NCBI GenBank assembly: GCA_002778455.1
Contig: PFCD01000001.1
Span: 53,445 to 117,444, forward strand
Direction of reading: 5' to 3'
Source of the DNA: Candidatus Micrarchaeota archaeon CG10_big_fil_rev_8_21_14_0_10_45_29
GTDB taxonomy: Archaea > Micrarchaeota > Micrarchaeia > Anstonellales > Anstonellaceae
DNA: 64,000 bases
Shown here: positions 14,401-35,538 of the stretch, in pieces
Layout of the letters: every line of letters begins with the position of its first letter
How positions within the stretch are numbered: the stretch's first letter is position 1
Program-made: the position numbers and the translations under genes
The notes under the pieces: generated by a model
The model's input: only the letters and a program-made list of their open reading frames with translations
What the model was told of the DNA's origin: nothing
Databases searched by the model: none

Positions 14401-17400
14401 TAAGCTACCTTGACCAAAACCTTGACATTAAAATTTATGAGGCAAGCTCGCCTTTTTCAGCCGCAAGAAGCATTGTTGATACATACAACAACTACGGCCC
14501 TATATCTACTCTCTGGGTAGGCGGGCACGGAGATGTGGGAAGCATAAGGTTTGGGCACGCCTGGCCTGCCGGGCTCATAACCGCGCAGCAAATCGCAAGC
14601 GGATCAGATCTTGGGCGCTATTTCATCTCCCATCCCTCGGTTATTTTTGTGAGCTGCAGCACAGGCATTGATTTACCGGGAGGATTTGCAAATACAGCCA
14701 GTGGCAGGTATAATGGAATTTTCTATGCGCCACAGGGAGAAACCCTTCTTGACAACATAACCTACAAAGGGTTAGATGAAAATTCTACTCCCCTATTTGA
14801 CATAAGATGGTCAGTTTCTCCAGGATCAATATTTTCCGAAGGAAAGCCCTCTTCCCCAAAAACACAAAATCCAAACATCCAATTCCCTGTAGGCGGCACG
14901 GCATTTGTGCCCGCCCCGCCAAAAAGAATTTCCGCCCCGATAGATTTTGAGCGCACTTTAGCCCCAAAAAGCGCGGACGACATAAAATTTGAGCTTAATA
15001 CCCTTCTTTCCAATTTGCGCTCGCTTGAGCAAACGGCAAAAGATTTTTCAGATGATTTTAAAATGGGGCAATTAAACCAAAACATGCTCAATTCCCTTCA
15101 AAAGCAGCTAAAAGCCCTTGAGCAGGACGCAAAATTCGTACAAGAGCCGGCAGAATCCGCCCTTATCGCATCCAAAATAGCCAACGCAAAGCTGCTAATC
15201 GCAAATACGCAATACCATCTCTCACATGAGCCTGTCGGCGGAGTTGCAAAAAAGCCCCCCTCGGCAATTGAAATAGGTTTAGACGGAAAGCCTACTGGCA
15301 GAAATATAAATTTAGAAACTACTTATACTCCAGAATATTTTGAAGGAAGATTGGCAATAGACCAAACCACTCCATACATAGAGCTTGCAGAAGGAAAAGC
15401 GTTAGAAATATACAGGCGAAGCGACTTTAACGATTATTTTCTTTTGCAAAGAAAAGGAAATGAGCTTGAAATAAGCTGCATCTCGCAAAATTTCAGCCCA
15501 GAGCAATATATGGAAAACCTTGGCTACCAAAAAACATCGATATATGTATACAGGGCGCAAGAGCCGTCTGTACGACAAGTAATTGATGGCGCAACAACTC
15601 TAAAAAAAGGCGACAGAGTAGTATTTAGCTTCGGAGCCCCGGAAGGACAATCCCCCTCATTTATATTTGACGGCAAAAAGCTTGTAAATTCTGCAGAGCA
15701 GGGCTGGAAAGCAAGCCAGCCTGTCGGCGGAGTTGCACACAAGCAGAATGTGCAGCCAACAAAAATAATCCCTCTACAGGCAAAAATGGAAAATTTCTCA
15801 AACAGCCAGGAAAAGCTAAAACTTCACCTCCATGACTGGAAAAGCTCTGCATATAATGCATATAACTCCAGCAAGTTAATTCTTGATGACATATCCCGCC
15901 TAAAAAACTCCGGGGTAATGGATGCGCGCCTTGATTTGCTTGAGCAAAAATTCAAATCCCATTTGCAGGTGCTTGATGCCCCCTCAAACACCATAAAAAA
16001 CGAATTTGAGTCAAGAATGCGAGAGCCGACACAGGAGGGCACGCAGGAGCTTTTGGGCATAATGAAAAAAAACACCTCCCAAATCCTTGATTATATCAGC
16101 AACTCAACCCTTAAGGCAGACATAAAAGAGCTTGAGTTAATATTGCGCGACAATTCCAAAACAAGCGCAGAGGCAAAAACAATCCTTGAGGAAACCGTGC
16201 AAAAGAGCAAAAATACAAACCTCTCCGCAATTGATGAGATGGGCTCAACCCTTCCATCCTACCTTGAGCCAACATACGACGTTTCTCAAATATCTTTCGG
16301 AGGGGTAAGCCAACTCTCGCTTGAGAGCACGCAACTCTCCCCGCTTGTAGAGAAAGCAATAGCTTCCCAGAGTGCATCCTATCCCAAAATAAAAATAAGT
16401 GTGGAGGGGCTCTCCCCCGAAATTTATGCGATGGTTGATGCGCAGGCATTCTCCTCAATTGTGGGAAACATGCTTGCAAATTCCCTCAAATACACCGCAG
16501 AATATGCCTCCAAAAACCCGGGCGCATTTCCCGATGGGCAGGAAATAAAACTTTCCTTGCGGCAAAACGATTATGGAAGCGGCTTTCGCACCCTTGAGAT
16601 AACTGTTGAGGATTTTGCCTCCGGCATGACTTATGAGCAGGCGGCAAGCGCATTTGAGGGCAAGCCAAGCACAAACGCGGTCGGCTCCTCAACAGGGCTT
16701 GCGATGAGCACTTCGCAGAAGCTTGCGCAAATGATGGAAGGGGATTTGCGCATCGACTCGCGGGGGCGAGCTTCAGGGGAGCCCTCAACAAAATTCACTT
16801 TTGAGATTCCGCTCAAATCCCAAGAAGCCCTCAACATAGAATCTGACATGGGCATAAGCATTGAGCCGTCCCAAAAACCCGGAAAATTTGATATTTATAT
16901 CGGAGAAGGGCAATCAAAGGCGTATGCCGGCTCTTTTTCGCAAGAGCGCGCCGCCCTTTTCAAATCCCAGTTCCTCATATACCAGCAAAACTTTCCAGAT
17001 ATTCTTCTCCCGGAAATATCTCATAGCATACAAAGCATTGACGGGCTAATGTCTGCCTTTGGAAAATGGAGGGTAAAGCAGAGCAGCGGGGACATGGCGA
17101 ATTACCTCGAATACCTTAATTCCAATTCCCTGCACCACTCTTTTGAGCCGTATTTTGAGCAAATAAAATCAACTCTCAATTCCATGGGATACGAATACAC
17201 TAATGGGCAGATTCCTGTCCGCTACCAGGGAAGCGCCCCAGTCTTTATGTTTAGCACGGATGGAAAGCTTGGAAAGAAAGAGTTTGTCCTAAAAATAAAA
17301 GACGGGCTGGAGGAGGAGATTGCCTCTAAAGTTCTAAACCTTTTCGGGAGAAATACCCATGCCATTTACTCCCCTTCAAAAGATTTTTGCATAATGGAAA

Positions 17401-17972
17401 AGCTTGACATATCCACCCCTGAGGAGGTATTTCTCTCAGGAAGGCCAGCAGAACTGTCCGGCTTGCTCTCCGAAGGGGAGGAAAAATCAGAATACCTAAA
17501 GCAAAGGGGCTCATGGGCGGCAGATGAACTCTTCTTTGCCCTTGGCGACGGGCACACGAGAAATTACATGCTTCTGGATTCAAAAGGCACTCTTGCAAGG
17601 ATAGACTTTCAGGCATTCGGATATTCAAATCCCTCTCCCCTGCATTCCATGGAGCTTAATCACCTGTGGGGATATTTTCGTTCTGAGGGCTCTATACGCC
17701 CAGAGCTTAAAGGAGCCTTCATGGAACGTTGGACAGAGTTGCAGCTCATGCTCTCAGAACCTTCTGTCCGACAGGAGCTTCTCTCAATATATGAGGGATA
17801 TTTCTCAAATCCGAATTACAAGCAGCGCCTTCTGAGCATAGCACCCGAAAACGCCTACTCGCGGCCTTTTTATAATCTAACTCCAAAACAAATAGTGGAC
17901 AACCTCTCCAAAAACCTGCAGTTTGATGCAGAGATTGCATGGGAGAGATTTTCAGGTGAATATGCAAGATGA
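11424..17972 (+). CDS. Giant (2182 aa) multidomain protein with four PVGG(T/V)A motifs, a putative clan-CD (caspase/CHAT-like) His-Cys dyad, a GHKL/HATPase_c domain and a possible kinase-like C-terminus
   Basis: It is a single uninterrupted 6.5-kb ORF. The HATPase_c N-box is 'IVGNMLANSLKYT', the G1-like motif is 'EDFASGM' and the G2 motif is 'GSSTGLAMS'. 'WVGGHGDVGS...VIFVSCSTG' looks like a His/Cys protease dyad. The C-terminal 'LGDGHTRNYMLLDSKGTLARIDFQAFG' is reminiscent of kinase catalytic and DFG loops. No H-box was found. Confidence 0.65.
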   Translation: MGVFAQAPNSQREDHAFEGEPLAEASPALRNSPISRTDHTYVNLEMAYARAQAKQTSIENKQQDFTMLSRQLSLSRFSPESSFPAQDEKSIIEKMNLLAISSISSTNIPEFISQYAQPFIKIAKDAGLTDIAQKIENYAKILAETTRINISSSPRLQNLGNLLSFRPADVFEAIKYCTFLTSEKKVSLLSSLSQFSPEYLPPSQNFATEEAALKQIELASNISTARTFAQDYTIASIGGIKSLRFLGTEIWFSPQEKNSLIEKIWDENKLAREGKELQEENIPENIAQCSLDYCNSALAYANYISVTTSSNDILGFVSDFAVEANDAINNIAKLQLEGAPKLEIVEELIKFEEFFQNCQSLVAEQAHYESLYKQAGNNPFLNALVWANRNGHTANLWMAFGMSLYNPVLGQAAFGMLGARDIKEGIETKDFNRIIFGTAMLAGMSQNPLISGASHSYIQLSIGKDALYLADDININGVNPRNLQSLLDLSILSLGVLNSRAQEKYSPHDFRYGGPRAQFSAPAQLPWFTELFNLEYFRNKNFAALADAIKKNTEIKSPQNDEGIVRHIAILSKSFNEQEISQICSRISQDKNTSCLMDANFLLSVELKTQGMHWENAGGVNYLRPGKEPAPREPVGGTAFIPKKSGGEQKPRIEENSSLLQDETIAKKLADAGITEKAMQRIESLEGYTPEAKEILREIISKSPQESLMVNFYAFESILGKGPLPENVISALKTQISICPAENLLNFLVMVEKAHPLLIDEYGSELSFPIMEMLQNPNLSSYPLWRDFLFSLKQGESYLSHASAFLTLSSILKSSYFKPEHWSLLHKLHNKTDIKQNADVLKEFFKLLEGGHLSPENIQNLNSFLDFMPRINKLSMIEFRERAERSGYDFDNSFQLAQSYRERFSLGKDVWGDWALNLLSNVDAIKQLDALNLKAADFLCKNQGIRFFGRYDAGVLLRQYENYGKRDSSKPLMLAINALSDYSGAISLVRNNISYLDQNLDIKIYEASSPFSAARSIVDTYNNYGPISTLWVGGHGDVGSIRFGHAWPAGLITAQQIASGSDLGRYFISHPSVIFVSCSTGIDLPGGFANTASGRYNGIFYAPQGETLLDNITYKGLDENSTPLFDIRWSVSPGSIFSEGKPSSPKTQNPNIQFPVGGTAFVPAPPKRISAPIDFERTLAPKSADDIKFELNTLLSNLRSLEQTAKDFSDDFKMGQLNQNMLNSLQKQLKALEQDAKFVQEPAESALIASKIANAKLLIANTQYHLSHEPVGGVAKKPPSAIEIGLDGKPTGRNINLETTYTPEYFEGRLAIDQTTPYIELAEGKALEIYRRSDFNDYFLLQRKGNELEISCISQNFSPEQYMENLGYQKTSIYVYRAQEPSVRQVIDGATTLKKGDRVVFSFGAPEGQSPSFIFDGKKLVNSAEQGWKASQPVGGVAHKQNVQPTKIIPLQAKMENFSNSQEKLKLHLHDWKSSAYNAYNSSKLILDDISRLKNSGVMDARLDLLEQKFKSHLQVLDAPSNTIKNEFESRMREPTQEGTQELLGIMKKNTSQILDYISNSTLKADIKELELILRDNSKTSAEAKTILEETVQKSKNTNLSAIDEMGSTLPSYLEPTYDVSQISFGGVSQLSLESTQLSPLVEKAIASQSASYPKIKISVEGLSPEIYAMVDAQAFSSIVGNMLANSLKYTAEYASKNPGAFPDGQEIKLSLRQNDYGSGFRTLEITVEDFASGMTYEQAASAFEGKPSTNAVGSSTGLAMSTSQKLAQMMEGDLRIDSRGRASGEPSTKFTFEIPLKSQEALNIESDMGISIEPSQKPGKFDIYIGEGQSKAYAGSFSQERAALFKSQFLIYQQNFPDILLPEISHSIQSIDGLMSAFGKWRVKQSSGDMANYLEYLNSNSLHHSFEPYFEQIKSTLNSMGYEYTNGQIPVRYQGSAPVFMFSTDGKLGKKEFVLKIKDGLEEEIASKVLNLFGRNTHAIYSPSKDFCIMEKLDISTPEEVFLSGRPAELSGLLSEGEEKSEYLKQRGSWAADELFFALGDGHTRNYMLLDSKGTLARIDFQAFGYSNPSPLHSMELNHLWGYFRSEGSIRPELKGAFMERWTELQLMLSEPSVRQELLSIYEGYFSNPNYKQRLLSIAPENAYSRPFYNLTPKQIVDNLSKNLQFDAEIAWERFSGEYAR

Positions 17973-23659: not shown

Positions 23660-24418
23660 ATGGACATAAACGACGCGTGGAAAGACACGTGCAAAATAGT
23701 CCTTGGCGGAGAAATAGGCGATTTGCAAAAATATGAAAAATATCTTCAAACCTATGTCGAGCCAATATATGAGAAAAACTCCTCCCTAAGCCAAAAGAAA
23801 GTAATAATCTCACGTCCGGACTTTTGCAAAAATGCAAAATTCATCTCATTTGACGAGCAGGAAAAATACAACAAGCAAATTTCGGATATAAAACTAAACT
23901 TAAACCAGATAAAAGACATAGATTCAATTCTCTCCTCAATAAGCGAGCAATTTTATTATGCAGGCAACCAGATAACCGGCAACTGCTCAAACATAGAAAA
24001 TTCGGACAATGTGATGGATTCGCATTATGTAATAAATTCAATAGAAATCGCGGGGGGAAAATTTATCGCCTACTCCTCAATGGCGCGCTTTGACGAATAT
24101 TTATTCGGAGTAAACTGGTCGGGGCAGGCAAAATACTGCATAAAATGCTTTGAAACATACAAGCAAAGCCGCTGCTTTGAGACTTTGAGCGTCTGGACAT
24201 CCTCCGACTGCTATTATTCTGCCCGCCTTGAGGGATGCGGCGACTGCATATTCTCATTTAACCAAAAGCACAAAAACAACCTTATAGGCAACCTGCAATT
24301 TCCAAAAGAAGAATATGCAAAACGCAAAAAAGCGCTTCTTGATCAGATAAGAAGCACTCTTGAGAGCAAGAAAAGAATACGCTCAATACTTGAGATAATG
24401 GGGGGTGTCAATGGGTGA
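23660..24418 (+). CDS. Cys-rich paralogue, A-module only (252 aa), unit 1 of the array; unknown family
   Basis: The N-terminus is 'WKDTCKIVLGGEIGDL..YEKYL', followed by 'KSSLSQK', 'IKDIDSI' and 'FYYAGNQITGNCSNIENSD'. Then come Cys ladders ('SSDCYYSARLEGCGDCIFSFN') and an 'IGNLQFPKEEY' tail. It is homologous to the other seven genes. Confidence 0.7.
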   Translation: MDINDAWKDTCKIVLGGEIGDLQKYEKYLQTYVEPIYEKNSSLSQKKVIISRPDFCKNAKFISFDEQEKYNKQISDIKLNLNQIKDIDSILSSISEQFYYAGNQITGNCSNIENSDNVMDSHYVINSIEIAGGKFIAYSSMARFDEYLFGVNWSGQAKYCIKCFETYKQSRCFETLSVWTSSDCYYSARLEGCGDCIFSFNQKHKNNLIGNLQFPKEEYAKRKKALLDQIRSTLESKKRIRSILEIMGGVNG

Positions 24419-25175
24419 GCAAATAGAGGGCGCATTCTCCTCGGTCACTTCAATTCTTTTCGGCAAAGCCCTCCAAAAAATTGACGACTACGGGGATTGG
24501 CTTTTGAAAAATCGAAGAAAGATAAGAACCGTAAAATCCACAATAAGCGGCAAAGAGGAGCTGATACCTCCGCTGGAGTTTCACCACGCAATCGACAGGG
24601 TATATGTTACAAACGAAGAGGCATTCAAACTCGGGGAAACAAAAGCAAAAAAAGAGGACATAGAAAAAACCACCATCCAAAACGCGGACAAAACACTCAA
24701 AAACATCCTTTATTACTCTCCCGACGTGCAAATGGGAAAAAATCAGGAAATGGAATTTTGCGCCCACTACATTGACTGCCAATTTTGCTACAAATCCGTC
24801 TCCATGGGGCATGTAAAATATGCTGCTTACTCTTTTTGGCCCCGCGACTCGGAATACATGTTTGGAGTGGACACCGTATTCTCCTCAAAATTCTGCATAA
24901 AATGCTACAATTCGGTAAATTTAACCCGCTGTTTTGAAACCTCCCACTCCTCCCATTGCTCTGACTGCTATTTCTGCCACAACTGCGACGGCTGTTCCGA
25001 GTGCATGTTTTGCACAAACGCAAAAAGCCTTCGCTATGCAATATTCAACAAACAATATCCAAAAGAGGAATACTTAAAACTCAAAAAGAAAATACAGGAA
25101 GAAATCTTCGCAAAATTGGAAAAAGATAAAAAATTAGACTTAAACATATTCAATTTAGGGTGCTATAAAAAATGA
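24405..25175 (+). CDS. Cys-rich paralogue, B-module only (256 aa), partner of 23660..24418
   Basis: 'FGKALQKIDDYGDWLL', 'YSFWPRDSEYMFG' and 'HCSDCYFCHNCDGCSECMFC' (7 Cys spaced CxxC) are present. The tail is 'YPKEEYLKLKKKIQEEIFAKLEKDKKLDLNIFNLGC'. It overlaps the upstream gene by 14 nt. Confidence 0.7.
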   Translation: MSMGEQIEGAFSSVTSILFGKALQKIDDYGDWLLKNRRKIRTVKSTISGKEELIPPLEFHHAIDRVYVTNEEAFKLGETKAKKEDIEKTTIQNADKTLKNILYYSPDVQMGKNQEMEFCAHYIDCQFCYKSVSMGHVKYAAYSFWPRDSEYMFGVDTVFSSKFCIKCYNSVNLTRCFETSHSSHCSDCYFCHNCDGCSECMFCTNAKSLRYAIFNKQYPKEEYLKLKKKIQEEIFAKLEKDKKLDLNIFNLGCYKK

Positions 25176-26767
25176 AATACTCGCAAGCCTACGAAGGGCT
25201 CAGCAAGGAATGGAAAAACACCTGCCGAATCCTGCTAAAAGAAGAGATAGGGGAGCTTAGCGACTTCAGTGGCTATCTCCAAAAATATATAGAGCCAGTA
25301 AGGGCGCAGAAATCATCGTTAAGCCAAAAGAGCATTACTCTCTCCAATGACGCCGCCTGTCCCCCAAAGAGAGTCATCGGAATGGAAGAGCTTGGCGTTT
25401 ATGCCAAAAAAACAGAAAAAATAAAGCTGGATATTAACCAAATCAAAGACATAGACTCCATTATCTCTTCTTTAGAGGAGAAATTTTATTATTGCGGAAA
25501 CGTCGTGCTCGGAAACTCAAGCAACGTGGAGAATTCCCACAGATGCACAAACACCAATTACGCACTAGCATCCCACGAAGTCGCGGATTGCCAGTATATC
25601 TCAAATTCAACAATGGCGAGATATTGCGAGTACATATTCGGTTCAAGCATTATGGGTGAGACAAAATACCTCATAAACGTCCTCTATTCTACAAAATCCG
25701 TGCGCTGCATGGAATGCACCCACCCCCTCCGTTCTTCCGACTGCTATTTCGGGGCAAACCTTGAGGACTGCTCCGACTGCATGTTCAGTTTCAATCTCAA
25801 GAATAAGAACAATTCCATCGGCAATCTGCCTCTTGAGAAAAGTAAATATATGCAAATAAAACAGAAGCTCTTATCCGAAATCGCCCGGAAGCTAAAAAAG
25901 GAGAAAAACATGCGTGGAATAATCGAGCTTATTGCCGGAATTCCAAGCCCTTCAACGCCAAAAGAGCGCCCCGAATACGTTTTCAAAACACAACACCCGC
26001 CTTCCAAGGAGGTGGAGGAGGCATTTCAAGCCACAACCAAGGTGCTTTTGGGAAAGCCCCTTTCAAATCTCCAGACATATGAGAAATATTTGCTTGCAAA
26101 CACGAAAAAACCCATCTCAGCCAAATCAGCCATAAGTTCAAAGCCCCTGCACGCAATCCCCATGCTCTTTAACCGGGAGCTGAAAAACTCCTTTGTAAGC
26201 CGGGATGAAGCTGCAGAGCTGTCCTCAAGGCGCATAAGCCCGCAATCCGCCGATGAACTAAGCCTTGAAAACATGGATAAAATCCTTCATGAGATCAAAT
26301 ACACTTGCCCTCAGGTAATTCTTGGAGAAAATGAGGATGTTGAAGAAAGCGTGGTTTACAACACATCAAGGCACTGCTACGGGGGCTCGGTGTATTATTT
26401 TGCAAAATATTGCGCCTATTGTTTCTGGCCGCGCAATTCCGAATACATCTTTGGTTCCACCTCCGTATTCTCATCAAAATTCTGCCTCGCTTGCCACTAT
26501 TCAAGCTCCCTTACCCGATGTTTTGAGCTTAGCGACTGCAACAACTGCTCCGACTGCTATTTCTGCCACAACGTGGAAAATTGCACAGAATGCATGTTCT
26601 GCTTCAATACAAAAGCCAAAAGATACGCAATCGGGAACGTGGAATATCCAAAGGAGGTATACTTAAAACTCAAAAAGAAAATACAGGAAGAAATCTTCGC
26701 AAAATTGGAAAAAGATAAAAAATTAGACTTAAACATATTCAATTTAGGGTGCAAAAAAAATGGATAA
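25172..26767 (+). CDS. Cys-rich paralogue, fused A+B form (531 aa)
   Basis: The N-half matches 23660 ('WKNTCRILLKEEIGEL', 'IKDIDSI', 'FYYCGN'). The C-half matches 24405, and its last 31 aa are encoded by 93 bp identical to 25071..25163. There is an ATGA overlap with the upstream gene. Confidence 0.75.
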   Translation: MKYSQAYEGLSKEWKNTCRILLKEEIGELSDFSGYLQKYIEPVRAQKSSLSQKSITLSNDAACPPKRVIGMEELGVYAKKTEKIKLDINQIKDIDSIISSLEEKFYYCGNVVLGNSSNVENSHRCTNTNYALASHEVADCQYISNSTMARYCEYIFGSSIMGETKYLINVLYSTKSVRCMECTHPLRSSDCYFGANLEDCSDCMFSFNLKNKNNSIGNLPLEKSKYMQIKQKLLSEIARKLKKEKNMRGIIELIAGIPSPSTPKERPEYVFKTQHPPSKEVEEAFQATTKVLLGKPLSNLQTYEKYLLANTKKPISAKSAISSKPLHAIPMLFNRELKNSFVSRDEAAELSSRRISPQSADELSLENMDKILHEIKYTCPQVILGENEDVEESVVYNTSRHCYGGSVYYFAKYCAYCFWPRNSEYIFGSTSVFSSKFCLACHYSSSLTRCFELSDCNNCSDCYFCHNVENCTECMFCFNTKAKRYAIGNVEYPKEVYLKLKKKIQEEIFAKLEKDKKLDLNIFNLGCKKNG

Positions 26768-27518
26768 CCTAAATGGCGTATTCAAGCAAACCTGCAAAAC
26801 AATCTTCGGCAAGGAGATAGGCGATTTGAAAAACTATGAATCCTACTTCAAGGAGGCAGTTCCCGGCATGGAGGTAAAATCCGCCTTCTCAGGGGAAACC
26901 GCCTTCGCGGCGGCAGACGACTACGCAAAGGGCTCAAAATTCTACAACTACCAAAAGGAAATAGATAAAATCTCAACCCTAAACAAGCCCTTTAACATAA
27001 ATGAAATAAAAGACATAGACTCCCTCATAAACGCCACCCGCGAGCGCTACGTCTATTCCTCAAACAAGATTTTGGGGAAATTTGAGAATGTGTCTGCATC
27101 GGATGTAATAATTGACTCCATAAACATTGTCGGAAGCGCAAACCTCTCAAAATGCAAAAACGCAGCCTTTTGCTTTCTGGCAAGAGAATCTCAAAACGTA
27201 TTTGGGTGCGCTTCATTCGGCTTTGATACAAATGTGATTCGCAGCTGCTACCACAAAAACAACGCACGAACTTTTGAGTGCGCGGTTGAGGAATACTTAA
27301 GCGACTCCCTTTTTTGCTACAATGTGTTCAATTCGTCCGATTGCATATTCTGTTTCAACCTAAAAAACAAGAAAAACATGGTAGCGAATATACAGCTTAC
27401 AAAAGAGCAATACTCGTCCAAAAAGGCGGACTTAATTGAGCAAATCACCTCTGAATTGGAGTCAAAGGGCAGGCTTGACTTTAGCATAATGGGTTTGAGC
27501 GGGCGTTTGCATGGATGA
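26760..27518 (+). CDS. Cys-rich paralogue, divergent A-module (252 aa)
   Basis: 'FKQTCKTIFGKEIGDLKNYESY', 'INEIKDIDSLI' and 'SSDCIFCFNLKNKKN' are present. It overlaps the upstream gene by 8 nt. Confidence 0.65.
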   Translation: MDNLNGVFKQTCKTIFGKEIGDLKNYESYFKEAVPGMEVKSAFSGETAFAAADDYAKGSKFYNYQKEIDKISTLNKPFNINEIKDIDSLINATRERYVYSSNKILGKFENVSASDVIIDSINIVGSANLSKCKNAAFCFLARESQNVFGCASFGFDTNVIRSCYHKNNARTFECAVEEYLSDSLFCYNVFNSSDCIFCFNLKNKKNMVANIQLTKEQYSSKKADLIEQITSELESKGRLDFSIMGLSGRLHG

Positions 27519-28284
27519 ATTTGAGAAATCATTTGCACAAACGACAAAAATTCTTCTTGGGGCAGAGCTTGGCTCTTTTTATGATTATTCAAAGTGGCTT
27601 TCTGAGCATGTGTTTTTACCTTATTGCGCAAAATCAAAAAAATCGGGAAAAGAAGTGTGGCTTGCACCCTCGCGGGACTTTCTTGGAAAAAAGTTTGACG
27701 CCGCCCGCATTGTCTCAATGGAGGAGGGGGAAATAAACAAAGAGAACTCCTACTCTTACGAGGACATAAAAGATGCGGATTTGAACTCATTTAGAACTAA
27801 ATTCTGCGAGCCAATAGCCCTGTATCTTGGGAACTTTCGCTACAAAACACATCAAAATGCTCTCAAATCTTCGGGAACAGGAGATTGTGTGAATGTGTAT
27901 ATGGGGGAAGATGTTTATCACGGTGCGCGCAACATCGGCTTTTGCAAAAGCATGCTATACTGCGAAAACATATTCGGATGCCGCGAGGGCACAAACTGCA
28001 AATACTGCATAAACTGCTACGGCTCAACCTACCTCACCAGATGCTTTGAGATGGATTCATGCACAAAATGCTCTGACTCATACTTCTGCCACAACTGCGA
28101 AAATTTGGAAAACTGCCTCTTCTGCTTCAACTCAAAAGGATTGCACTACGCAATAGCAAACATAGAAGTGGGAAAAGAAAAATACATGGAAATAAAAAAG
28201 AAAATCCTCACAGAAATTTCCCAAAAGCTTGAAAAAAACAAAAAACTTGACATAAGCATATTCAACATAGGTGCAAGAAAATGA
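27511..28284 (+). CDS. Cys-rich paralogue, B-module (257 aa)
   Basis: The core is 'TNCKYCINCYGSTYLTRCFEMDSCTKCSDSYFCHNCENLENCLFCFNSKGLHYAIANIEVGKEKY', and the tail is '..KLEKNKKLDISIFNIG'. It overlaps the upstream gene by 8 nt. Confidence 0.7.
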   Translation: MDEFEKSFAQTTKILLGAELGSFYDYSKWLSEHVFLPYCAKSKKSGKEVWLAPSRDFLGKKFDAARIVSMEEGEINKENSYSYEDIKDADLNSFRTKFCEPIALYLGNFRYKTHQNALKSSGTGDCVNVYMGEDVYHGARNIGFCKSMLYCENIFGCREGTNCKYCINCYGSTYLTRCFEMDSCTKCSDSYFCHNCENLENCLFCFNSKGLHYAIANIEVGKEKYMEIKKKILTEISQKLEKNKKLDISIFNIGARK

Positions 28285-29846
28285 GCCAAATAGCAGACGA
28301 GATAAACAAATCCTGGCACGAGACATTCAGGATTCTCTTTGGAACCGATTGCAAGCACAACCTTGAAGAACTCTCTGAATGGCTCTTTCGCGACCATTAT
28401 CCGCCCATGTACGTAAAATCCTCAATTTCCGGCAAACCAGTTACCCTCTGCTCCACAAGATACTCGAAAACTTCAAAATTCATCTCGCAGGAGGAAATAA
28501 GCTATTCCAGAAAGCACCGGCTAGACATAAACAAAATCAAGGATATTGACTCAATTCTTGAGGCAATAGAAGATCGCGCATATTATGCCGGAAACAAAAT
28601 ATTCGGCTCCACAACCAACAGCGAGTCCTGCGACAACATAACCGATTGCCACTATGCATACCATAGCTCTGTATGCTCCCAGTCAAAGCAGCTGGGCTAC
28701 TCTTCATACGCGCGCGACAACAGCGAATACTCCTTCGGCTCTGAAATACACAGCAAAGGCAAATACCTAATCCGGGTTTTGGGGGCCGCCGGCCTGGCCC
28801 GCTGTTTCGAGTCATACATAATAACCAATTCCTCTGACCTTTTCTATACTTTCGACTGCTCTGGCTGCGACAACGCAATGTTTTCCTTCGGCCTGCGCTC
28901 CAAACGATATTGCATAGGCAACCTGCCCCTCGAAAAATCCAAATACCTGCCCCTGAAGAAAAAACTCACCCAAGAAGCGGCAGAATACATAAACAAGCAC
29001 AAAACCTTCCCATCAGTATATGATTTTCCACCCCCAGACAAGTCCAAAATAAAGCCGCTTTCCATAACGCCTACTCTTGCCCCAAAAATGGATTTCAAGC
29101 CCATTGACGAGGCTTTTGAAACCGCCACCAAAGTAATCCTTGGAAAGCCCCTCTCCCCTGTAAAAAATTACCGGAAATTCCTCACAAAGCGCTCGGATGC
29201 CGTGCAGATAATAAAAACTATATTCGGAAGCGAGGGCCTCTACTCCAAGTACTCATGGTATCGCGCCGTCCCCCACGAGCGCGCAATAACCATGGCAGAG
29301 GCGCGCGAGATGGAAAGCCGCCACATAACTTTGAGCGAATCCGAAAATCTGGGCTCAATACTTAAAAAATGCGAAGCCATCGCCTTTTACGCAGTGGATT
29401 TCAAGGAGGGGCAGAACACAAACAACTCATACACCCAGGTGGAATTCAATGCCATAAACTCATACATGTGCGGGGATGTTACCTACTCAAAAAACGCGGC
29501 ATTTGACACAATGGCCTTCCACAGCGAGGCGGTGTTCGGCTGCTTTAGGGCAATACACTCCAAATATTCAATCCGCTGCCATGACTGCTTCCAATTAACC
29601 GCCTGCATGGACATGGACTCATGCTCCTACTGCTCAAATTCAATGTTTTGCCACAACTGCGAAAACCTTGAGAACTGCATGTTCTGCTTCAATGCAAAAA
29701 GCCTCAAATACGCCATAGGCAACGTGGAAGTAGGGAAAGAAAAATACGCCGAGATAAAAAAGAAAATCTGCGATGAAATATTAGCCCAAATAGAAAAAAA
29801 CGGGGATTTGGGCTTTGACATATGCGATTTAGGGTGCAAAAAATGA
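28281..29846 (+). CDS. Cys-rich paralogue, fused A+B form (521 aa)
   Basis: There is an ATGA overlap with the upstream gene. The A-half has 'WHETFRILFGTDC', 'INKIKDIDSI' and 'YYAGNKIFGSTTNSESCDN'. The B-half has 'FETATKVILGKPL' and 'CSNSMFCHNCENLENCMFCFNAKSLKYAIGNVEVGKEKY'. Confidence 0.75.
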   Translation: MSQIADEINKSWHETFRILFGTDCKHNLEELSEWLFRDHYPPMYVKSSISGKPVTLCSTRYSKTSKFISQEEISYSRKHRLDINKIKDIDSILEAIEDRAYYAGNKIFGSTTNSESCDNITDCHYAYHSSVCSQSKQLGYSSYARDNSEYSFGSEIHSKGKYLIRVLGAAGLARCFESYIITNSSDLFYTFDCSGCDNAMFSFGLRSKRYCIGNLPLEKSKYLPLKKKLTQEAAEYINKHKTFPSVYDFPPPDKSKIKPLSITPTLAPKMDFKPIDEAFETATKVILGKPLSPVKNYRKFLTKRSDAVQIIKTIFGSEGLYSKYSWYRAVPHERAITMAEAREMESRHITLSESENLGSILKKCEAIAFYAVDFKEGQNTNNSYTQVEFNAINSYMCGDVTYSKNAAFDTMAFHSEAVFGCFRAIHSKYSIRCHDCFQLTACMDMDSCSYCSNSMFCHNCENLENCMFCFNAKSLKYAIGNVEVGKEKYAEIKKKICDEILAQIEKNGDLGFDICDLGCKK

Positions 29847-31426
29847 GCGAACCCCTGCAAACCCTAGAGCGCAAATTCAAGGAGACCTGCAAAATAGTCC
29901 TCGGGGAGCCAGTAGGCGATTTGCAGGAATTTCTCCCATGGCTTTCAATCCATCCGGGCCAAATCAGCGCCAAAAAATCAAGCGTATCCGGAAAGCAGGT
30001 GGTATTTACCCGGATGGAATACGAAGGCAACCGCTTTATCAGCCTAGATGAGGTTGATTTCAGCAAAAAATACCCAAAAATTAATCCGGCCAGCATGGCA
30101 GGAATTGTTTCACTGGCAAAAACTCTTTCAGACCGTTTTTATTATGCAGGAAACCTGATTCTGGGCAATTCAAATTTTGTGGAGAGCAGCACAAACATAT
30201 CTGATTGCCATTATGCCTATGAAGCAATACAGGCAACCAATTCAAAATACATATTCAAGTGCAACCACGGGCGCGAGGACGATTCCCTATTCGGGGTTTA
30301 CGGCTCCGGGGAATCCTCATTCTGCCTAAGCTGCAGCCAGCTTGTGAGGGTAAAGCGCAGCATGGAAACATGGGTGAGCAACAACAGCTCGGATTGCTAT
30401 TATTGCTACGGGCTAGACAGCTGCAGCAACTGCATCTTTTGCTTCCATCTCAAAAACCGGCGCTATTGCGTTGGAAACGTGCAGCTTGAGCCAGAGGAAT
30501 ACGACCGGATAAAGCAAAGGCTATTATCCGAAATCAGGGGAATTCTAAAAAAGGAAAAAAAGATTCCCAGCCTTGTAGACGTTGCAAGAAAATGCAGGCT
30601 TTCAATACCCCCCCTATCCCAAACACGCCGGGACGAGAATTCAACTGAAGTTACAAACAAGAGGAGAATCGAGAACGAATTCGCGCTAACCTTTCTGGTA
30701 TTGTTTGGGCATGCCCCGGAAAGCATAGACAAATACGAGCAATTCCTCAGGCGCCACGTGAGGCTCAGCCAAACATGCAAGTCGGCGGCAAGCGGCAAGA
30801 GCATTGAGATGTGCACCCATGCCCTATTCAGGATAAACCTCCCGCCAGAGAGAATCCTCTGCATGGCAGAGGCGGAAGAACTGGGGGAGAAATACGACAT
30901 TGGCAAGGATGCGGCGCAAACCATATCAATGCAAAATGCTCATGAGAAAATATCCAAAATCGCCTTTTTCGACGCCGATTTCTGGGAGGGGCAAAATTCA
31001 AACATAATAGACTGTGTAGTGCCAGTAGAATCCTCCGACTGCTACAAATCCGTAGCCATGGTATATTCCAAAAACTGCGCATACACCTTCTGGCCTGTAA
31101 ATTCCTCAAACTGCTTTGGCTGCGACACCATCTTCCATTCCTCCAGCTGCATAAACTGCTACCACTCCGTAAAACTCTCCCGCTGCTTCGAGCTGGACTC
31201 CTGCCGCGACTGCTCAGACTCCCTTTTCTGCCACAACATAGAAAACTGCTCAAACTGTCTTTTTTGCTTTAACGTAAAAGCCAAAAGATACGCAATAGGC
31301 AACGTGGAATACCCCAAAGAAGAATACCTAAAACTCAAAAAGAAAATACTCATGGAACTTTCCCAAAAGCTTGAAAAGGATAAGAATCTCGATATATCCA
31401 TATTCAACATAGGGTGCAAAAAATGA
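29843..31426 (+). CDS. Cys-rich paralogue, fused A+B form (about 527 aa from the ATG at 29843)
   Basis: The likely start is 'MSEPLQTLERKFKETCKIVLGEPVGDLQEF', which overlaps the upstream stop as ATGA; the ORF track extends it to 29822. The B-half has 'YTFWPVNSSNCFGCDTIFHSSSCINCYHSVKLSRCFELDSCRDCSDSLFCHNIENCSNCLFCFNVKAKRY'. Confidence 0.75.
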   Translation: MSEPLQTLERKFKETCKIVLGEPVGDLQEFLPWLSIHPGQISAKKSSVSGKQVVFTRMEYEGNRFISLDEVDFSKKYPKINPASMAGIVSLAKTLSDRFYYAGNLILGNSNFVESSTNISDCHYAYEAIQATNSKYIFKCNHGREDDSLFGVYGSGESSFCLSCSQLVRVKRSMETWVSNNSSDCYYCYGLDSCSNCIFCFHLKNRRYCVGNVQLEPEEYDRIKQRLLSEIRGILKKEKKIPSLVDVARKCRLSIPPLSQTRRDENSTEVTNKRRIENEFALTFLVLFGHAPESIDKYEQFLRRHVRLSQTCKSAASGKSIEMCTHALFRINLPPERILCMAEAEELGEKYDIGKDAAQTISMQNAHEKISKIAFFDADFWEGQNSNIIDCVVPVESSDCYKSVAMVYSKNCAYTFWPVNSSNCFGCDTIFHSSSCINCYHSVKLSRCFELDSCRDCSDSLFCHNIENCSNCLFCFNVKAKRYAIGNVEYPKEEYLKLKKKILMELSQKLEKDKNLDISIFNIGCKK

Positions 31427-32148
31427 AAAAAAAGAAACAGCCCCAAGAAATTCAAAAAACCGACTCAAAGCTCAAAGCCGCAACCATTGGCTTCTACCAC
31501 CAAAACTGCCAGACAAGCATAAGCACCGAAAAATTCCCCCACATCACTTTGGAGCAGGTAAGCCCGGTGGTATATTTCAGAAGGGAAAAGGACTGGATGG
31601 ACTACAGCCTCATATGGAACGTAAAGGCCGAAAAAGAGTCCGAATTAGAAGAATACTTAAATTATATAAAAAAGCGAAACGACACAAAGCGCCTCTCCAT
31701 ACTGAACAAATCAGGCACAGAAGCCCTCATCCTCCTGCGCTTCAAATCCCCCTCCTCAAGCTATGAAAAAGTCCTTGAGAGCGGCACAATCCCCACCTCC
31801 CCTGTAATAGCAAAAGAGGGCTTTGAGACATATAATTTGCTTGCAATAAATCCGAAGGGAATCAAAAACCTCTCAAAAGAGCTTGACGCCATAGGGGACG
31901 TGAAAATGATGCGCGTGGGCGAATACAAAAATTCCGGCGACTTGCCATCCCTTACCCACAAGCAAAAAGACGCGCTCATAATGGCGATGATAAACGGCTA
32001 TTACAAATGGCCGAAAAGCACAAATCTTGAAAAGCTCTCAGAGCTTGCAAACATATCCAGAAGAAGCATGCAGGAGAGGCTGCGCCGCGCCGAATCCAAG
32101 CTTTTTCCCCATTTAATCAAAAAACACGTAAAAAAGGGCGAAAAATAG
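31423..32148 (+). CDS. HTH_10 (bacterio-opsin-activator/Bat-type) helix-turn-helix transcriptional regulator embedded in the Cys-rich gene array
   Basis: The C-terminal 'LTHKQKDALIMAMINGYYKWPKSTNLEKLSELANISRRSMQERLRRAESKLF' matches HTH_10 strongly. The probable ATG at 31423 overlaps the upstream stop (ATGA). The ORF track start at 31414 would require a GTG start. Confidence 0.7.
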   Translation: MKKKKQPQEIQKTDSKLKAATIGFYHQNCQTSISTEKFPHITLEQVSPVVYFRREKDWMDYSLIWNVKAEKESELEEYLNYIKKRNDTKRLSILNKSGTEALILLRFKSPSSSYEKVLESGTIPTSPVIAKEGFETYNLLAINPKGIKNLSKELDAIGDVKMMRVGEYKNSGDLPSLTHKQKDALIMAMINGYYKWPKSTNLEKLSELANISRRSMQERLRRAESKLFPHLIKKHVKKGEK

Positions 32149-32160
32149 GGCATATGCCCT

Positions 32161-33783
32161 ATGCAAGTTTATTACATTAAACTCCCTTATCCATATATGC
32201 CTGAACCCCTAGACACGCTGCAACAAAGATGGGATGCCACATGCAAAATATTGCTAGGCGAGCCGATAGGCGCTTTGCAGGATTACAGGGAATGGCTTCT
32301 GGAGCTCACCGAACCCCTCCACCACACCGCCTCCTCAATTTCCGGCAAAAAAACCACATACTACGTAACCAAATACGAAAAAAATTCAAAAAGAATCTCA
32401 TTTGAAGAGATAGATTTTGCCAAAAATTACCCTGCCCCAAATATGGATGCAAAAAATATACAAGAGCTTCTTAACTCAATCTCCGGCCGTTTCCACTACG
32501 CTGGAAACATAATTCTTGGAAAATGCGGCGCAATAGAAAAATCCTCAAATTTGCAAAACTCGTTTTACATGCTTGAGTCCGGCAACTACGACGGCTGCAA
32601 ATACACGGCATACTCTACGGTGGGCAGATTCTCCGAGGACTCATACGGGGGAAACGGCATAGGAAACTCATCCATAGTGCTAAAGTGCAAAGAAACTTTT
32701 GAGAATAAACGCTGCCTTGAGGCATGGATGAGCCAATATGTATCTGACTGCTACTACTCGTACGCTCTTGCAAACTGCTCTGACTGCATGTTTTGCTTCC
32801 ACCTAAAGGGCAAAAAGCACTGCATAGGCAACCTGCAATTAACTCCTGAGCAATACAAGCAAATTAAGAAAAAACTCCTCTCCCAAATGCTCTCCTACTT
32901 AAAAGAGCACAAGCGCCTTCCCTCTTTGGCGGAAATTGCCAGAAATTCAAAATTGGACAAATCCATAATAGAAAAAATAAAATTGCCAGAGTCAAAAAAA
33001 GAGAAAAAAGATTTGCAGGAAATAGAATCTGCCTTCAAAAAAGCCTGCAAACTCATTTTCGGAAAAGAGCTTCCTGGCAAAATAGACGATTATGGCAAAT
33101 GGCTCTCCACAAACAAGAGGGAAATAAAATCATACAAATCCGCAATTTCGGGAAAGCCAGTATTCATTGGTGACTACTGCGCCCTCTTTGATTTGCCAAA
33201 AGACCGCCTCCTAGGGGCGGATGAAGCCCCAGCATTCGCGCAGGCGGCGCATCTCTCTTTAGAAGAAGTGCAAAGCCTTGAATTTTCCAAAATAACCCAA
33301 ATACTTGGGAAAATCGCCTATTTCTCCCCAGAATATTACGAGGGCGCAAGCGCGAACATAATAGACACTCCAACGGCAATGGATTCCTCCAACTGCTACA
33401 AAACATTTGCAACCGTATGGGCAAAATATTGCGCCTATGGCTTCTGGCCGCGAAGCTCCGAATACATTTTCGGCTTTGACACCTGCCTCTCCTCCTCCTT
33501 TTGCATAAACTGCTACAATTCCACCAGCCTCACCCGCTGCTTTGAGATGGACGGGTGTGCAAACTGCTCGGATTCATACTTCTGCCACAACTCAGAATCA
33601 CTCTCAAACTGCCTCTTCTGCTTCAACGTAAAGGCAAAGCACTATGCAATTGGAAACGTAGAGGTGGGAAAAGAAAAATACGAAAAAATAAAAAAAATGG
33701 TTTTGGAAGAAATTGCGAAAAAGCTTGAAAAAGAGAAAAAGCTAGAATTAAATATCTACAACATCGGCTCTTTAAAAAAATAA
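32161..33783 (+). CDS. Cys-rich paralogue, fused A+B form (about 528-540 aa)
   Basis: The N-terminus is 'LQQRWDATCKILLGEPIGALQDYREWLL'. The B-half has 'FKKACKLIFGKELPGKIDDYGKWL', 'YGFWPRSSEYIFG', 'CANCSDSYFCHNSESLSNCLFCFNVKAKHYAIGNVEVGKEKY' and the tail 'KLEKEKKLELNIYNIG'. The true start may be the ATG at 32197. Confidence 0.75.
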   Translation: MQVYYIKLPYPYMPEPLDTLQQRWDATCKILLGEPIGALQDYREWLLELTEPLHHTASSISGKKTTYYVTKYEKNSKRISFEEIDFAKNYPAPNMDAKNIQELLNSISGRFHYAGNIILGKCGAIEKSSNLQNSFYMLESGNYDGCKYTAYSTVGRFSEDSYGGNGIGNSSIVLKCKETFENKRCLEAWMSQYVSDCYYSYALANCSDCMFCFHLKGKKHCIGNLQLTPEQYKQIKKKLLSQMLSYLKEHKRLPSLAEIARNSKLDKSIIEKIKLPESKKEKKDLQEIESAFKKACKLIFGKELPGKIDDYGKWLSTNKREIKSYKSAISGKPVFIGDYCALFDLPKDRLLGADEAPAFAQAAHLSLEEVQSLEFSKITQILGKIAYFSPEYYEGASANIIDTPTAMDSSNCYKTFATVWAKYCAYGFWPRSSEYIFGFDTCLSSSFCINCYNSTSLTRCFEMDGCANCSDSYFCHNSESLSNCLFCFNVKAKHYAIGNVEVGKEKYEKIKKMVLEEIAKKLEKEKKLELNIYNIGSLKK

Positions 33784-33792: not shown

Positions 33793-35538
33793 CTACTCCA
33801 GCGGCCCCCTGCCCTTAAAATACGTCTTCTCGCCGGTATAAGGGTCATGCTTTATGCCCAAATCAACATTTATCCAATCCTGCGTATCAACCGTGCGGGT
33901 TATCATGGGGATAATATATTTTTTGCCGTCATATAGGCGGGCAATGCATTCGCGGGTATGCAATTTCACAAACATTTCCCTCTTGGAGGCATCAAGCTCG
34001 GAAGGACTGACGCTTCGCTTGAAAAATTCCTCCACCTTTATATCCATCATGGATGAGAGAAGGCGCGCATCCTCTTTTGTAACGCGAAAAGCGAATATGT
34101 TGCGCGCATTTGAAATAAGGGCATCAAGCACCTCTTTTGAGAGTTGCCCCAAATACTGGGCGGCGGCATAAGTGTATAAATTAAACTTGCGCGTCTCTGC
34201 CAAAATGTCTTTTACAACCTTTGTCTCAACAGTGGGAAATTCATCCACTATAAGCATGGTTTGCATTTTTAGCTTCTCGCTAATCGCCATCATATACATC
34301 TGATTCACTATGGCGCCAGCAAAAAATTTGATTATCCTGCGCCCGAAAAAGTGGGGGTTGAAAGAGACGATTGTAAGCCTCTCGTTTTGCACTATTTTTC
34401 CCAAATCTTCCAAATGCTTTGCCTTTCCCAAATAAAGCATGTATTCGCCTATGAAATTTGTGACGGGCAATATGGCGTCGTTGAAATGGTGCATATAAAT
34501 GTCCTGAAATTCCTTGTCAAAAAACCGCTTTACCTCGTCATTTTGGCTCATGGCGGTGAATTCCATTCTTTTTGAAGAGTCGGTAAGAAGCAAATTAATA
34601 TTCTCAAGGTTCAAATCGTTGATGTCTGCCAAAAGGTGCACAGAGTAAAACACCACTCTCTCCGCGTATTTTGACTCCTGCGCTATTGTGGAGGTAATAA
34701 GCTGAGCAACCAATTGGGTGATAAGCGGGCTTTTTCCTGTGCCCACGTCAAAGGGCTCCACATAATTGTTGCGAAAGTCAATTATTTTCGCGTCAGGGAA
34801 ATATTTTGCAAATTCTCCGTGCGGGTCCACAACAACTATTCGCACATCTTTGTATTTTTGCAAAACCGCTTTTATGAGTATTTGTATAAATTTGGATTTT
34901 CCGCTTCCCGAAGTGCCTACAATGATGCCGTGCTGGAAAACGTCAAAATTATTTACCCCTATGCGCGCGCTGTCGCTCACAAGCACGGGGTTTGGCGACT
35001 CCAAATAAACCGCCTTGGGAATAGGGTCAAGCAATTCTATGTAAAAGAGGGGGTTGTTCTCAAGGTCTATCTCCAAAAATTTCATGGGGTTTGTAAGCGC
35101 AAGCATCCCGCGCCTCCCCCCGTAATCCACAAAATTTCCAAAGCCGTAGTAAATGCCAAAGAATTTTATGACTCTAATCCTTATCTCCTCAACATTTTCC
35201 TTTATCAAAAAGTTGAAGAAATTTGTGCCGCCTACAACTTTTGTTCCAAGGGAAAATTTGCTTTTTGAGAGCTCGAGGGGCGCCGGGTCGTTTATCCTGA
35301 AAGGAAACATCAATGCCGACTGCCCGTATATGTTGTCTTTGTCCTTGATAAACATCTTTATGGTGTTGTTATACCTTTTTATTACAAATTCCACTCCGCG
35401 AAAAGAGAAAGCGCGCGATAGGTCTATTGCCTCCAGGAGCGGTATATGCTTTTTTGTAAGCATGTCAAATGTGCGCTTGTAATCCTCCGAAGTTATTTTT
35501 GGAGCGTAAATGGAGAGCTCTGCGTATTTTTTTGCCAT
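33793..35538 (-). CDS. HerA/VirB4-like (DUF87/AAA_10-type) P-loop NTPase
   Basis: Walker A is 'GIIVGTSGSGKSKFIQIL'. 'VVVDPHGEFAKYF' is a HerA/VirB4-type motif and Walker B is 'MLIVDEFPTV'. 'RKFNLYTYAAAQ' is an arginine-finger/Q motif. No NurA partner is seen nearby. Confidence 0.65.
   Translation of the reverse strand: MAKKYAELSIYAPKITSEDYKRTFDMLTKKHIPLLEAIDLSRAFSFRGVEFVIKRYNNTIKMFIKDKDNIYGQSALMFPFRINDPAPLELSKSKFSLGTKVVGGTNFFNFLIKENVEEIRIRVIKFFGIYYGFGNFVDYGGRRGMLALTNPMKFLEIDLENNPLFYIELLDPIPKAVYLESPNPVLVSDSARIGVNNFDVFQHGIIVGTSGSGKSKFIQILIKAVLQKYKDVRIVVVDPHGEFAKYFPDAKIIDFRNNYVEPFDVGTGKSPLITQLVAQLITSTIAQESKYAERVVFYSVHLLADINDLNLENINLLLTDSSKRMEFTAMSQNDEVKRFFDKEFQDIYMHHFNDAILPVTNFIGEYMLYLGKAKHLEDLGKIVQNERLTIVSFNPHFFGRRIIKFFAGAIVNQMYMMAISEKLKMQTMLIVDEFPTVETKVVKDILAETRKFNLYTYAAAQYLGQLSKEVLDALISNARNIFAFRVTKEDARLLSSMMDIKVEEFFKRSVSPSELDASKREMFVKLHTRECIARLYDGKKYIIPMITRTVDTQDWINVDLGIKHDPYTGEKTYFKGRGPLE

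Follow-up and report, generated by a model that had tools for sequence, protein, structure and literature searches.

Short-patch gene conversion as the probable source of a 94-nt identical tract in two diverged genes of a Micrarchaeota tandem array

How do two neighboring genes with diverged bodies come to carry 3′ ends that are identical at every base? The question is raised by a tandem gene array within the 64-kb stretch of DNA analysed here (64,000 nt, hereafter the window). In the window sequence, positions 25070–25163 (+), at the 3′ end of the gene designated g1B, match positions 26659–26752 (+), at the 3′ end of the gene g2, at 94 of 94 nt, with a spacing of 1589 nt between the two copies. 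The original prediction was of a 93-bp identity at 25071–25163 and 26660–26752; it was correct base for base, but the tract extends one base further to the left. The tract translates as YLKLKKKIQEEIFAKLEKDKKLDLNIFNLGC and codes for residues 221–251 of g1B, with one base of the preceding codon, and for residues 497–527 of g2, all 31/31 codons being identical. It is AT-rich (GC 25.5%), which leaves the conclusion on its identity unchanged. No other exact direct repeat in the array approaches it in length, the second-longest being 22 nt. A third copy was found neither in the 64-kb window nor in the fetched loci, apart from copies of the same locus (L001–L003, L086 and part of L087), and a search of viral contigs for crossover products or other copies of the tract gave no match. 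We consider it probable, at roughly 85%, that the identity is the result of a recent short-patch ectopic gene conversion between g1B and g2, two adjacent and anciently diverged paralogs.

The array consists of genes for two modules, A and B, either split or fused. The split A-module gene g1A (23660–24418, +) encodes 252 aa and scores 332 bits with the module-A HMM; its stop overlaps the start of g1B by 8 nt (ATGGGTGA). The split B-module gene g1B (24411–25175, +) encodes 254 aa from the ATG at 24411, scores 326 bits with the module-B HMM and specifies the same protein as PIT84954.1. The fused A + B gene g2 (25172–26767, +) encodes 531 aa and is 100% identical to P0001 (COU37_00325, Candidatus Micrarchaeota archaeon CG10_big_fil_rev_8_21_14_0_10). 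A second split pair, g3A (26760–27518, +; 252 aa) and g3B (27511–28284, +; 257 aa), was likewise assigned by module HMM. The remaining members are the fused A + B genes g4 (28281–29846, +; 521 aa), g5 (29843–31426, +; 527 aa from the ATG at 29843, with an ATGA overlap with g4) and g6 (32161–33783, +; 540 aa). A transcription regulator with an HTH_10 domain (31423–32148, +; Pfam HTH_10, E = 9.8e-15) lies inside the array, and a HerA/FtsK/VirD4-like P-loop ATPase (33793–35538, −; Pfam DUF87 and TrwB_AAD_bind) adjoins it. The eight ORFs of the family are all complete modules that have a start, and most are translationally coupled to a neighbor.

The array genes are members of an unannotated family that is confined to Micrarchaeota, rich in cysteine and built of two homologous beta-solenoid modules. 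Scans of all array proteins against Pfam, NCBIfam and PADLOC assigned no family, the family profile, searched against PDB sequences, gave a single meaningless match (E = 0.31), and our literature search turned up neither an account of the family nor one of gene conversion in Micrarchaeota. The family is large, with hundreds of 50%-identity clusters, and forms tandem arrays of up to 10 copies, with many copies per genome at several loci. A Kyte-Doolittle hydropathy scan revealed no transmembrane segments in family proteins, and inspection of the N-termini by eye revealed no obvious signal peptide. In the AlphaFold2 model of g2 (pLDDT 89.9, pTM 0.91) each module consists of a beta-solenoid and, C-terminal to it, a long helix. 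Copy 2 of the tract falls on the C-terminal helix and tail of the B module, the helix being placed at residues 494–515 (pLDDT 91–95). The only fold matches were left-handed beta-helix proteins, and these were non-significant (Foldseek E ≥ 0.04, TM 0.1–0.27). The apparent likeness to such proteins (gamma-carbonic anhydrases, GlmU, PglD) is structural only, in the modeled beta-solenoid with a C-terminal helix. Unlike them, the family has no Pfam Hexapep match, its repeat is Cys/Ser at a 3-residue spacing, and it has a two-module architecture with additional N-terminal helical parts.

Identity within the tract is significantly above that of both flanks, as is characteristic of a conversion tract. 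Outside the tract the B modules of g1B and g2 are 52% identical in DNA; the 300 nt upstream of it are 61% identical, and downstream the two sequences are unrelated. Around the tract, exact matches reach at most 21 nt. When the remaining 14 B-module pairs are compared across the 94 columns of the tract, identity is 51–77%. The run of identity spanned 57 polymorphic sites, whereas a Sawyer-type permutation test gave a maximum of 21 in 10,000 permutations; the 94-nt identity is far beyond chance. Third-position identity between g1B and g2 in the 300 nt upstream is 52%, which is saturation, so that synonymous sites are homogenised within the tract and saturated outside it. At the protein level, identity outside the tract is 44% for module A (unit 1 versus unit 2) and 42% for module B, lower than the 50–60% originally estimated.

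These values bear on whether the two genes are simply young duplicates, produced by tandem duplication or unequal crossover, that have diverged rapidly everywhere except in the tail. Units 1 and 2 are adjacent and, at the protein identities just given, are mutually the most similar paralogs in the window, as such an origin would have it. However, third positions are already saturated immediately upstream of the tract, and the body of g1B is closest, with 57% aa identity, to a split B gene of another genome (L018, 605–1411) and is only 42% identical to the B module of g2. The body of g1B thus groups with the split B genes of other genomes and its tail with g2, a phylogenetic incongruence. A crossover junction would also leave long identity on one side, whereas identity falls on both sides of the tract; neither long one-sided identity nor young duplicates were found. 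We therefore regard recent duplication as extremely improbable. The original prediction had offered gene conversion and unequal crossover as alternatives, and it is the former that the data support. The flanks on either side are unique to each copy, and four assemblies agree in an intact gene order, the outcome of a non-crossover event: since both copies kept their own flanks, no crossover occurred and gene architecture was unchanged.

The direction of transfer may have been either. Orthologue tails of g1B and g2 match the tract about equally (16–21/31 residues), so that donor and recipient are indistinguishable by their tails, and no allele predating the conversion was found in the 90%-identity clusters, where the only other member is an N-terminal fragment. 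In addition, g2 looks mosaic: it is g5-like just upstream of the tract, where the 3′ region of g5 is ∼85% identical to g2 over ∼85 nt abutting and overlapping the 5′ end of the tract, and identical to g1B within it. This mosaic look, together with the number of family copies in each genome, would suit independent conversion of both genes by a donor that has escaped sampling, a third copy at another genomic locus or in a different strain. Such a donor would, however, require two events with identical end points, and no third copy of the tract appeared in the window or, same-locus copies aside, in the fetched loci. We judge it improbable.

Could selection instead of recombination have kept the two sequences the same? 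The tract lies directly upstream of the start of the next gene in both cases, where a promoter, a small RNA or another DNA or RNA element might constrain it, and a protein docking motif could do so as well; across the family, protein sequences of B-module tails resemble one another slightly more within arrays, and co-adaptation to a shared partner could contribute. However, the ends of the other B modules that precede gene starts show only the 51–77% identity given above. An Rfam scan of 23–34 kb gave no match, folding of the tract as RNA revealed no unusual structure (z-score 0.01), and a scan for promoters and terminators gave nothing above shuffled expectation. The lack of an Rfam match and of an unusual fold, together with the divergence of the other four B-module 3′ ends, means that constraint at the nucleotide level does not explain the identity, and constraint at the protein level cannot preserve identity at all synonymous sites. 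Selection may account for retention of the patch but is hardly credible as the origin of the identity.

The source is a short-read metagenome-assembled genome, and an assembler might have threaded one tail into both places when the tails truly differ. Other assemblies do fragment in or near g1B (L003, L087, L088, L089 and L090): L003 starts 36 nt before copy 1, and L088, L089 and L090 break or diverge in g1B near 24710–24760, from which we infer that the locus is heterogeneous in the population. L088 carries a variant at 24761, and the 3′ half of g1B is replaced there by 164 nt of foreign sequence with no DNA or protein match anywhere. Against an artefact, both copies, each with its own distinct flanks, are present not only in the window contig but also in L001, L002 and L003. 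L002 is a MEGAHIT k141 contig, from a population with 2 SNPs elsewhere, and by the logic of de Bruijn assemblers a k-mer longer than 94 should cross the tract only if reads span it. The Logan k = 31 unitig L087 stops inside copy 1 at exactly 25099 (25069 + 30), the signature of a genuine two-context repeat. Because this end falls exactly where such a repeat forces a stop, and because three further assemblies agree, an assembly artefact is very improbable; similar patches also occur in unrelated MAGs from different pipelines.

Gene conversion between g1B and g2 would then have proceeded as follows. Homologous-recombination repair or heteroduplex formation would have begun towards the 3′ end of the B module, where the sequence is relatively conserved, and ∼94 nt encoding the C-terminal helix and tail would have been copied from one gene into the other. 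Copying would have ended at the last Cys codon, where the two sequences turn unrelated. The patch may have been tolerated, and possibly favored, the helix and tail being among the more conserved parts of the family and slightly homogenised within arrays. Flank identity is low for classical RecA/RadA-type recombination, and the mechanism of initiation is one that we only infer.

The repeat had also been proposed to provide the homology for interconverting split and fused genes. The position of the repeat does not support this proposal: in g1B as in g2 it lies at the 3′ terminus of the B module, and to judge from the map, crossing over at that point would only cause loss or duplication of the 1589-nt fused unit, with no effect on the boundary between split A and B. 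Nor does the age of the split forms support it. Split modules form conserved clades across many genomes (g3A falls in a clade of 10 split A modules from many genomes, g3B in one of 13 split B modules), with only ∼8–13 state changes on trees of ∼190 tips, and the split state is therefore old and inherited. Nor do poly-A tracts of A6–A8 mark every gene junction as a special signal: there are none at the two A/B split junctions and only A4 at the g3B/g4 junction, and such runs, of A6 or more, are frequent, with 48 in 10.2 kb. Those present at junctions are mainly Lys-Lys codons (AAA AAA) from the conserved C-terminal ...GCKK, after which come the ATGA stop/start overlaps.

Similar exchanges are found elsewhere in the family. 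Paralogs of other Micrarchaeota arrays share exact patches of 40–71 nt within flanks of 50–80% identity (L032, L081, L048, L056, L037 and L082). Across 40 loci other than the present window, the last 50 residues of the B module had a within-array excess identity of +4.8 points versus +0.6 for the body (Wilcoxon p = 0.0014), and the excess was confined to these residues. At sites with the same amino acid in the last 25 B-module columns, codon identity was 0.512 within arrays versus 0.397 between genomes. Throughout the family, the B-module tails of an array are slightly homogenised.

Gene conversion of short segments is the basis of antigenic variation in Neisseria pilE/pilS and Borrelia vlsE. 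As in those systems, the patches described here are short, lie between tandem or related cassettes and are bounded by conserved sequence. Here, however, the genes are full-length ORFs with their own starts, not an expression site with silent cassettes, and the array proteins are without obvious signal peptides or predicted transmembrane segments. A cassette-type locus for antigenic or phase variation was rejected for these reasons and since there is no sign of programmed or high-frequency switching. Classical cases of concerted evolution are tufA/tufB in Salmonella and the archaeal chaperonin subunits. In both the known cases and the present array, gene conversion makes paralogs of one genome more similar than their age predicts. 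The known cases homogenise whole genes over the long term, whereas here the effect is ∼94 nt plus a weak family-wide excess in the last ∼50 codons. Concerted evolution of prokaryotic paralogs has been treated by Wang & Chen (2018, PMC6053082). Ectopic recombination among tandem paralogs is also known from the lpl cluster of Staphylococcus aureus (Tsuru & Kobayashi 2008, PMC2568036). Both loci are tandem arrays of diverged paralogs in which a conserved stretch of each ORF is the site of exchange, the exchanged units adjoin gene junctions, and copies are mosaic. In lpl, however, the site is in the middle of the ORF and crossing over recombines 5′ with 3′ halves among strains, compared with one short non-crossover patch at the extreme 3′ end here; furthermore, lpl genes encode lipoproteins, and the present ones cytoplasmic beta-solenoids of a DPANN archaeon.

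The neighborhood of the family is recurrent. Homologues of the ATPase lie within 500 nt of family genes in 26/78 loci, and in 19/32 arrays versus 0/18 fully flanked singletons; homologues of the HTH_10 regulator adjoin family genes in 20/78 loci. The ATPase is soluble, with no transmembrane segment predicted in it. Its best match was CedD, at 52 bits versus a cut-off of 600; models of HerA antiphage systems gave 26–28 bits versus cut-offs of 800–850, and PADLOC returned only weak mad8 and HerA matches. With scores below the cut-offs, and with an unannotated family as partner genes, the known HerA/FtsK-type systems (Ced DNA import, conjugation, HerA defence) were rejected as an identity for this locus. 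One speculative reading, which we consider unlikely, is that the C-terminal helix and tail of the B module are a ‘constant’ docking element, kept uniform within each array by repeated conversion and by selection for one shared partner, the ATPase being the obvious candidate, as the other parts diversify. Arrays, ATPase and HTH_10 regulator might then belong to one system, specific to Micrarchaeota and hitherto undescribed, with a role such as interaction with a host, handling of nucleic acids or defence; the split forms would be an A + B heterodimer, and the 94-nt patch the latest homogenisation event.

The tract itself is an ordinary, textbook footprint of ectopic gene conversion, an event common in tandem gene families, and it leaves the view of such arrays unchanged. 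It does provide a clean example, from the reduced genome of a DPANN archaeon, of homologous exchange between paralogs only ∼50–60% identical in DNA. More interesting than the tract is the gene family, which is wholly unannotated, restricted to Micrarchaeota, conserved in split and fused forms, and whose arrays show a specific link with a HerA/FtsK-like ATPase. Its genes will be encountered by whoever annotates DPANN genomes.

The array contains eight family ORFs, all on the + strand, which belong to an unannotated Cys-rich Micrarchaeota family and encode A and B modules in split or fused form. The split pair g1A (23660-24418) and g1B (24411-25175) is followed by the fused gene g2 (25172-26767), the split pair g3A (26760-27518) and g3B (27511-28284), and the fused genes g4 (28281-29846), g5 (29843-31426) and g6 (32161-33783). 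An HTH_10 regulator gene (31423-32148) breaks the series. g2 is a 100% match to COU37_00325 of Candidatus Micrarchaeota archaeon CG10_big_fil_rev_8_21_14_0_10. Upstream of the array lie genes for an archaeal type IV pilus-type ATPase and a membrane protein, as well as an unannotated 72-aa ORF followed by a HicA toxin gene. Downstream come a HerA/FtsK/VirD4-like ATPase gene on the opposite strand (33793-35538, -) and then two PurP genes. Elsewhere in the window, a giant ORF at 11424-17972 encodes 2182 aa, in which a histidine-kinase-type HATPase_c domain (residues ~1672-1798) is the sole recognisable domain. A 50-nt exact direct repeat (10295-10344 and 10372-10421, 77 nt apart, ending ...CAAGGTAATTTTTATG) resembles a promoter or start region that has been duplicated; 20 nt of it occur once more, upstream of the ORF at 10634 (10405/10620), with a GC-rich palindromic segment between these copies. 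At 51947-51994 there is a 48-nt exact duplicate of 52143-52190, the 5′ end of the ORF starting at 52150 (MNEILFLTSNKHK...), 196 nt upstream of it; this looks like a partially duplicated gene start.

g1B and g2 share a direct repeat of 94 nt (25070-25163 and 26659-26752, spacing 1589 nt) that is equal base for base. The original prediction of a 93-bp identity at the 3′ ends of two array members was borne out, the identity reaching one base further left. The reading frame of the tract is kept in both genes, with the product YLKLKKKIQEEIFAKLEKDKKLDLNIFNLGC. No other exact direct repeat in the 10-kb array exceeds 22 nt, and none in the 64-kb window is longer than this one. Outside the tract, DNA identity between the two B modules is 52% (61% in the 300 nt upstream), and third-position identity upstream of the tract is 52%. 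In protein, the parts outside the tract are 42% (module B) and 44% (module A) identical, lower than the 50-60% first estimated for the rest of these genes. The remaining 14 B-module pairs are 51-77% identical across the 94 alignment columns of the tract, and even with an identity of 0.77 per site the chance of a 94-nt run is ~2e-11. In a Sawyer-type test the observed run was 57 polymorphic sites, compared with a maximum of 21 among 10,000 permutations.

An assembly artefact could also produce such identity. However, both copies, each with its own distinct flanks, are present in three more assemblies: a JGI 76-kb contig (L001), an ENA contig from MEGAHIT (k141) that differs by two SNPs elsewhere (L002), and another JGI contig (L003). 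In addition, the Logan k=31 unitig L087 stops at 25099 (25069+30), precisely the point at which a unitig has to break off once it runs into sequence with two left contexts in the reads. Only reads that span the tract would allow a k-mer longer than 94 to cross it. Some small doubt remains. Separately, contig ends cluster inside g1B: two JGI contigs (L089 and L090) stop at 24710 and 24726, and L002 begins at 24752. Another contig, L088 (ENA ERZ27293414), matches the window exactly through 24760, beyond which 164 nt of unrelated sequence cut off g1B after residue 116. Searches for DNA and protein matches to this 164-nt piece across all searchable collections found none. The breaks at 24710-24761 suggest a population structural variant, insertion or chimeric join.

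Identity falls sharply on either side of the tract. Without its tail, the C-terminal end of the B module, g1B is nearest to a split B gene of another Micrarchaeota genome (L018 605-1411, 57% aa), with which it has the motif YAIFN in common; its identity to g2 is 42% aa. Neighbour-joining trees grouped g1B with split B modules in a small clade. Since g1B has nearer split-B kin elsewhere and groups with them, g1B and g2 are old paralog lineages, and the history of the tail differs from that of the body. Duplication or crossover as the source was rejected because identity drops on both sides and g1B is closer to L018 than to g2. The tails of orthologues of the g1B and g2 lineages alike match the tract at 16-21 of 31 residues. 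We also rejected a nucleotide-level element, as other B ends preceding gene starts lack such conservation; an Rfam search for an RNA element gave no match, and the RNA fold z-score of the tract was 0.01, indicating no unusual fold. The tract showed every testable feature of an interparalog gene-conversion patch and, judged from sequence, is a fresh example of this known process. Of the original interpretation, gene conversion is retained, while a crossover origin, interconversion of split and fused forms and a poly-A junction signal are not. The closest parallel described comes from tandem paralog clusters of bacteria, such as the Staphylococcus aureus lpl genes (PMC2568036), where conserved segments serve as sites of recombination; prokaryotic concerted evolution in general offers a second parallel (PMC6053082). 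The array does not fit a cassette-type variation locus. g2 may be a mosaic, since its positions 26611-26695 are ~85% identical over ~85 nt to g5 31276-31360 (coding KAKRYAIGNVEYPKE.YLKLKKKI), a stretch that runs up to and into the 5′ end of the tract and could be an earlier conversion patch that has partly decayed.

Exact paralog patches of 40-71 nt within 50-80% identical flanks were found in other arrays from other groups' assemblies. At locus L032 a 71-nt patch is shared by a split B gene and the fused gene that follows it, close to the 3′ end, as in g1B/g2; the others are at L081 (64 and 45 nt), L048 (59 nt), L056 (59 and 56 nt), L037 (54 nt) and L082 (48 nt). Among 40 array-bearing loci, this window excluded and some loci sharing a genome, the last 50 residues of B were more alike within arrays than between loci by 4.8 points (p = 0.003). 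The excess was limited to these residues, that of the body being 0.6 points and not significant (paired Wilcoxon test, p = 0.0014). Where the amino acid is the same, codon identity had its peak within-array excess in the last 25 B columns (0.512 within arrays versus 0.397 between genomes). The protein-level signal could come partly from co-adaptation to a shared partner.

The repeat had also been proposed as a route between split and fused genes. From the map, a crossover between the copies would only delete or duplicate the 1589-nt g2 unit; g1A/g1B would stay split, so one architecture cannot be converted into the other in this way. Split pairs are common across Micrarchaeota: the count in 77 loci of species-representative genomes is about 35 A+B pairs to 166 fused ORFs, and in the pairs A always sits directly before B, with stop and start codons overlapping (for example, at L010, L032, L048, L059, L070, L076 and L082). 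Split-module clades have up to 13 members from different genomes, and trees of ~190 tips show as few as 8 state changes for B and 13 for A. This pattern indicates that fission is old, inherited and conserved, and that the split genes are not pseudogenes. At the A/B junctions of the two split pairs here, the stop of one gene overlaps the start of the next cleanly by 8 nt (ATGGGTGA and ATGGATGA), and the ~25-residue linker of the fused forms is missing; these junctions are not frameshifts. Poly-A tracts, predicted at every gene junction, are absent from the A/B junctions, and g3B/g4 has only A4. The runs are mainly AAA AAA codons of a conserved ...GCKK end ahead of ATGA overlaps; runs of A6 or longer number 48 in 10.2 kb. 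At the g2/g3A junction there is an A8 run (26753-26760, TGCAAAAAAAATGGATAA), from which loss of one A would fuse g2 and g3A in frame.

Full-length proteins pair two ~250-aa modules, A and B, that are homologous to each other: their HMMs cross-match at 130-200 bits. Pfam, NCBIfam and PADLOC scans of family proteins gave no match, and none of the 120 homologues listed has a precomputed Pfam domain. All named relatives are Micrarchaeota, and 354 clusters pass E <= 1e-30 in an exhaustive HMM search. The AlphaFold2 model of g2 (pLDDT 89.9, pTM 0.91) shows the same layout in both modules: helices at the N-terminus, then a beta-solenoid of successive short strands, then a long helix at the C-terminus. 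On this model the tract encodes the last of these helices in module B (residues 494-515) plus the tail. The high pTM implies fixed A/B packing, so that a split A protein and its B partner probably pair into a heterodimer matching the fused protein. Foldseek matched only left-handed beta-helix proteins, none significantly. Cys content is 3.6-5.5% compared with 0.2-0.4% in neighbour proteins. Many Cys residues are spaced by three, as in CNNCSDCYFCHN...CTECMFCFN (g2 residues 440-480), and Cys and Ser are swapped among paralogs. Model confidence is at its minimum (67-78) in this Cys-rich part of B (residues ~440-480). We infer that the Cys positions form a solenoid core rather than a fixed metal site; the Cys-rich part could possibly bind a metal or cluster.

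No TM segments were found in family proteins, and the 33793-35538 ATPase is also soluble. The latter reached no curated family threshold, its top match being CedD (52 bits, cut-off 600). Across 78 loci, neither the pilus genes nor PurP show conserved linkage to family genes. In 26 of these loci an ATPase homologue is found no more than 500 nt from a family gene, and in 20 an HTH_10 homologue adjoins one. ATPase adjacency was seen in 19 of 32 arrays (three or more family ORFs) versus 0 of 18 singletons with complete flanks. Family arrays, ATPase and HTH_10 regulator look like a conserved, undescribed gene module; our best guess, held with low confidence, is that the family is a cytoplasmic multi-paralog partner set for the ATPase.
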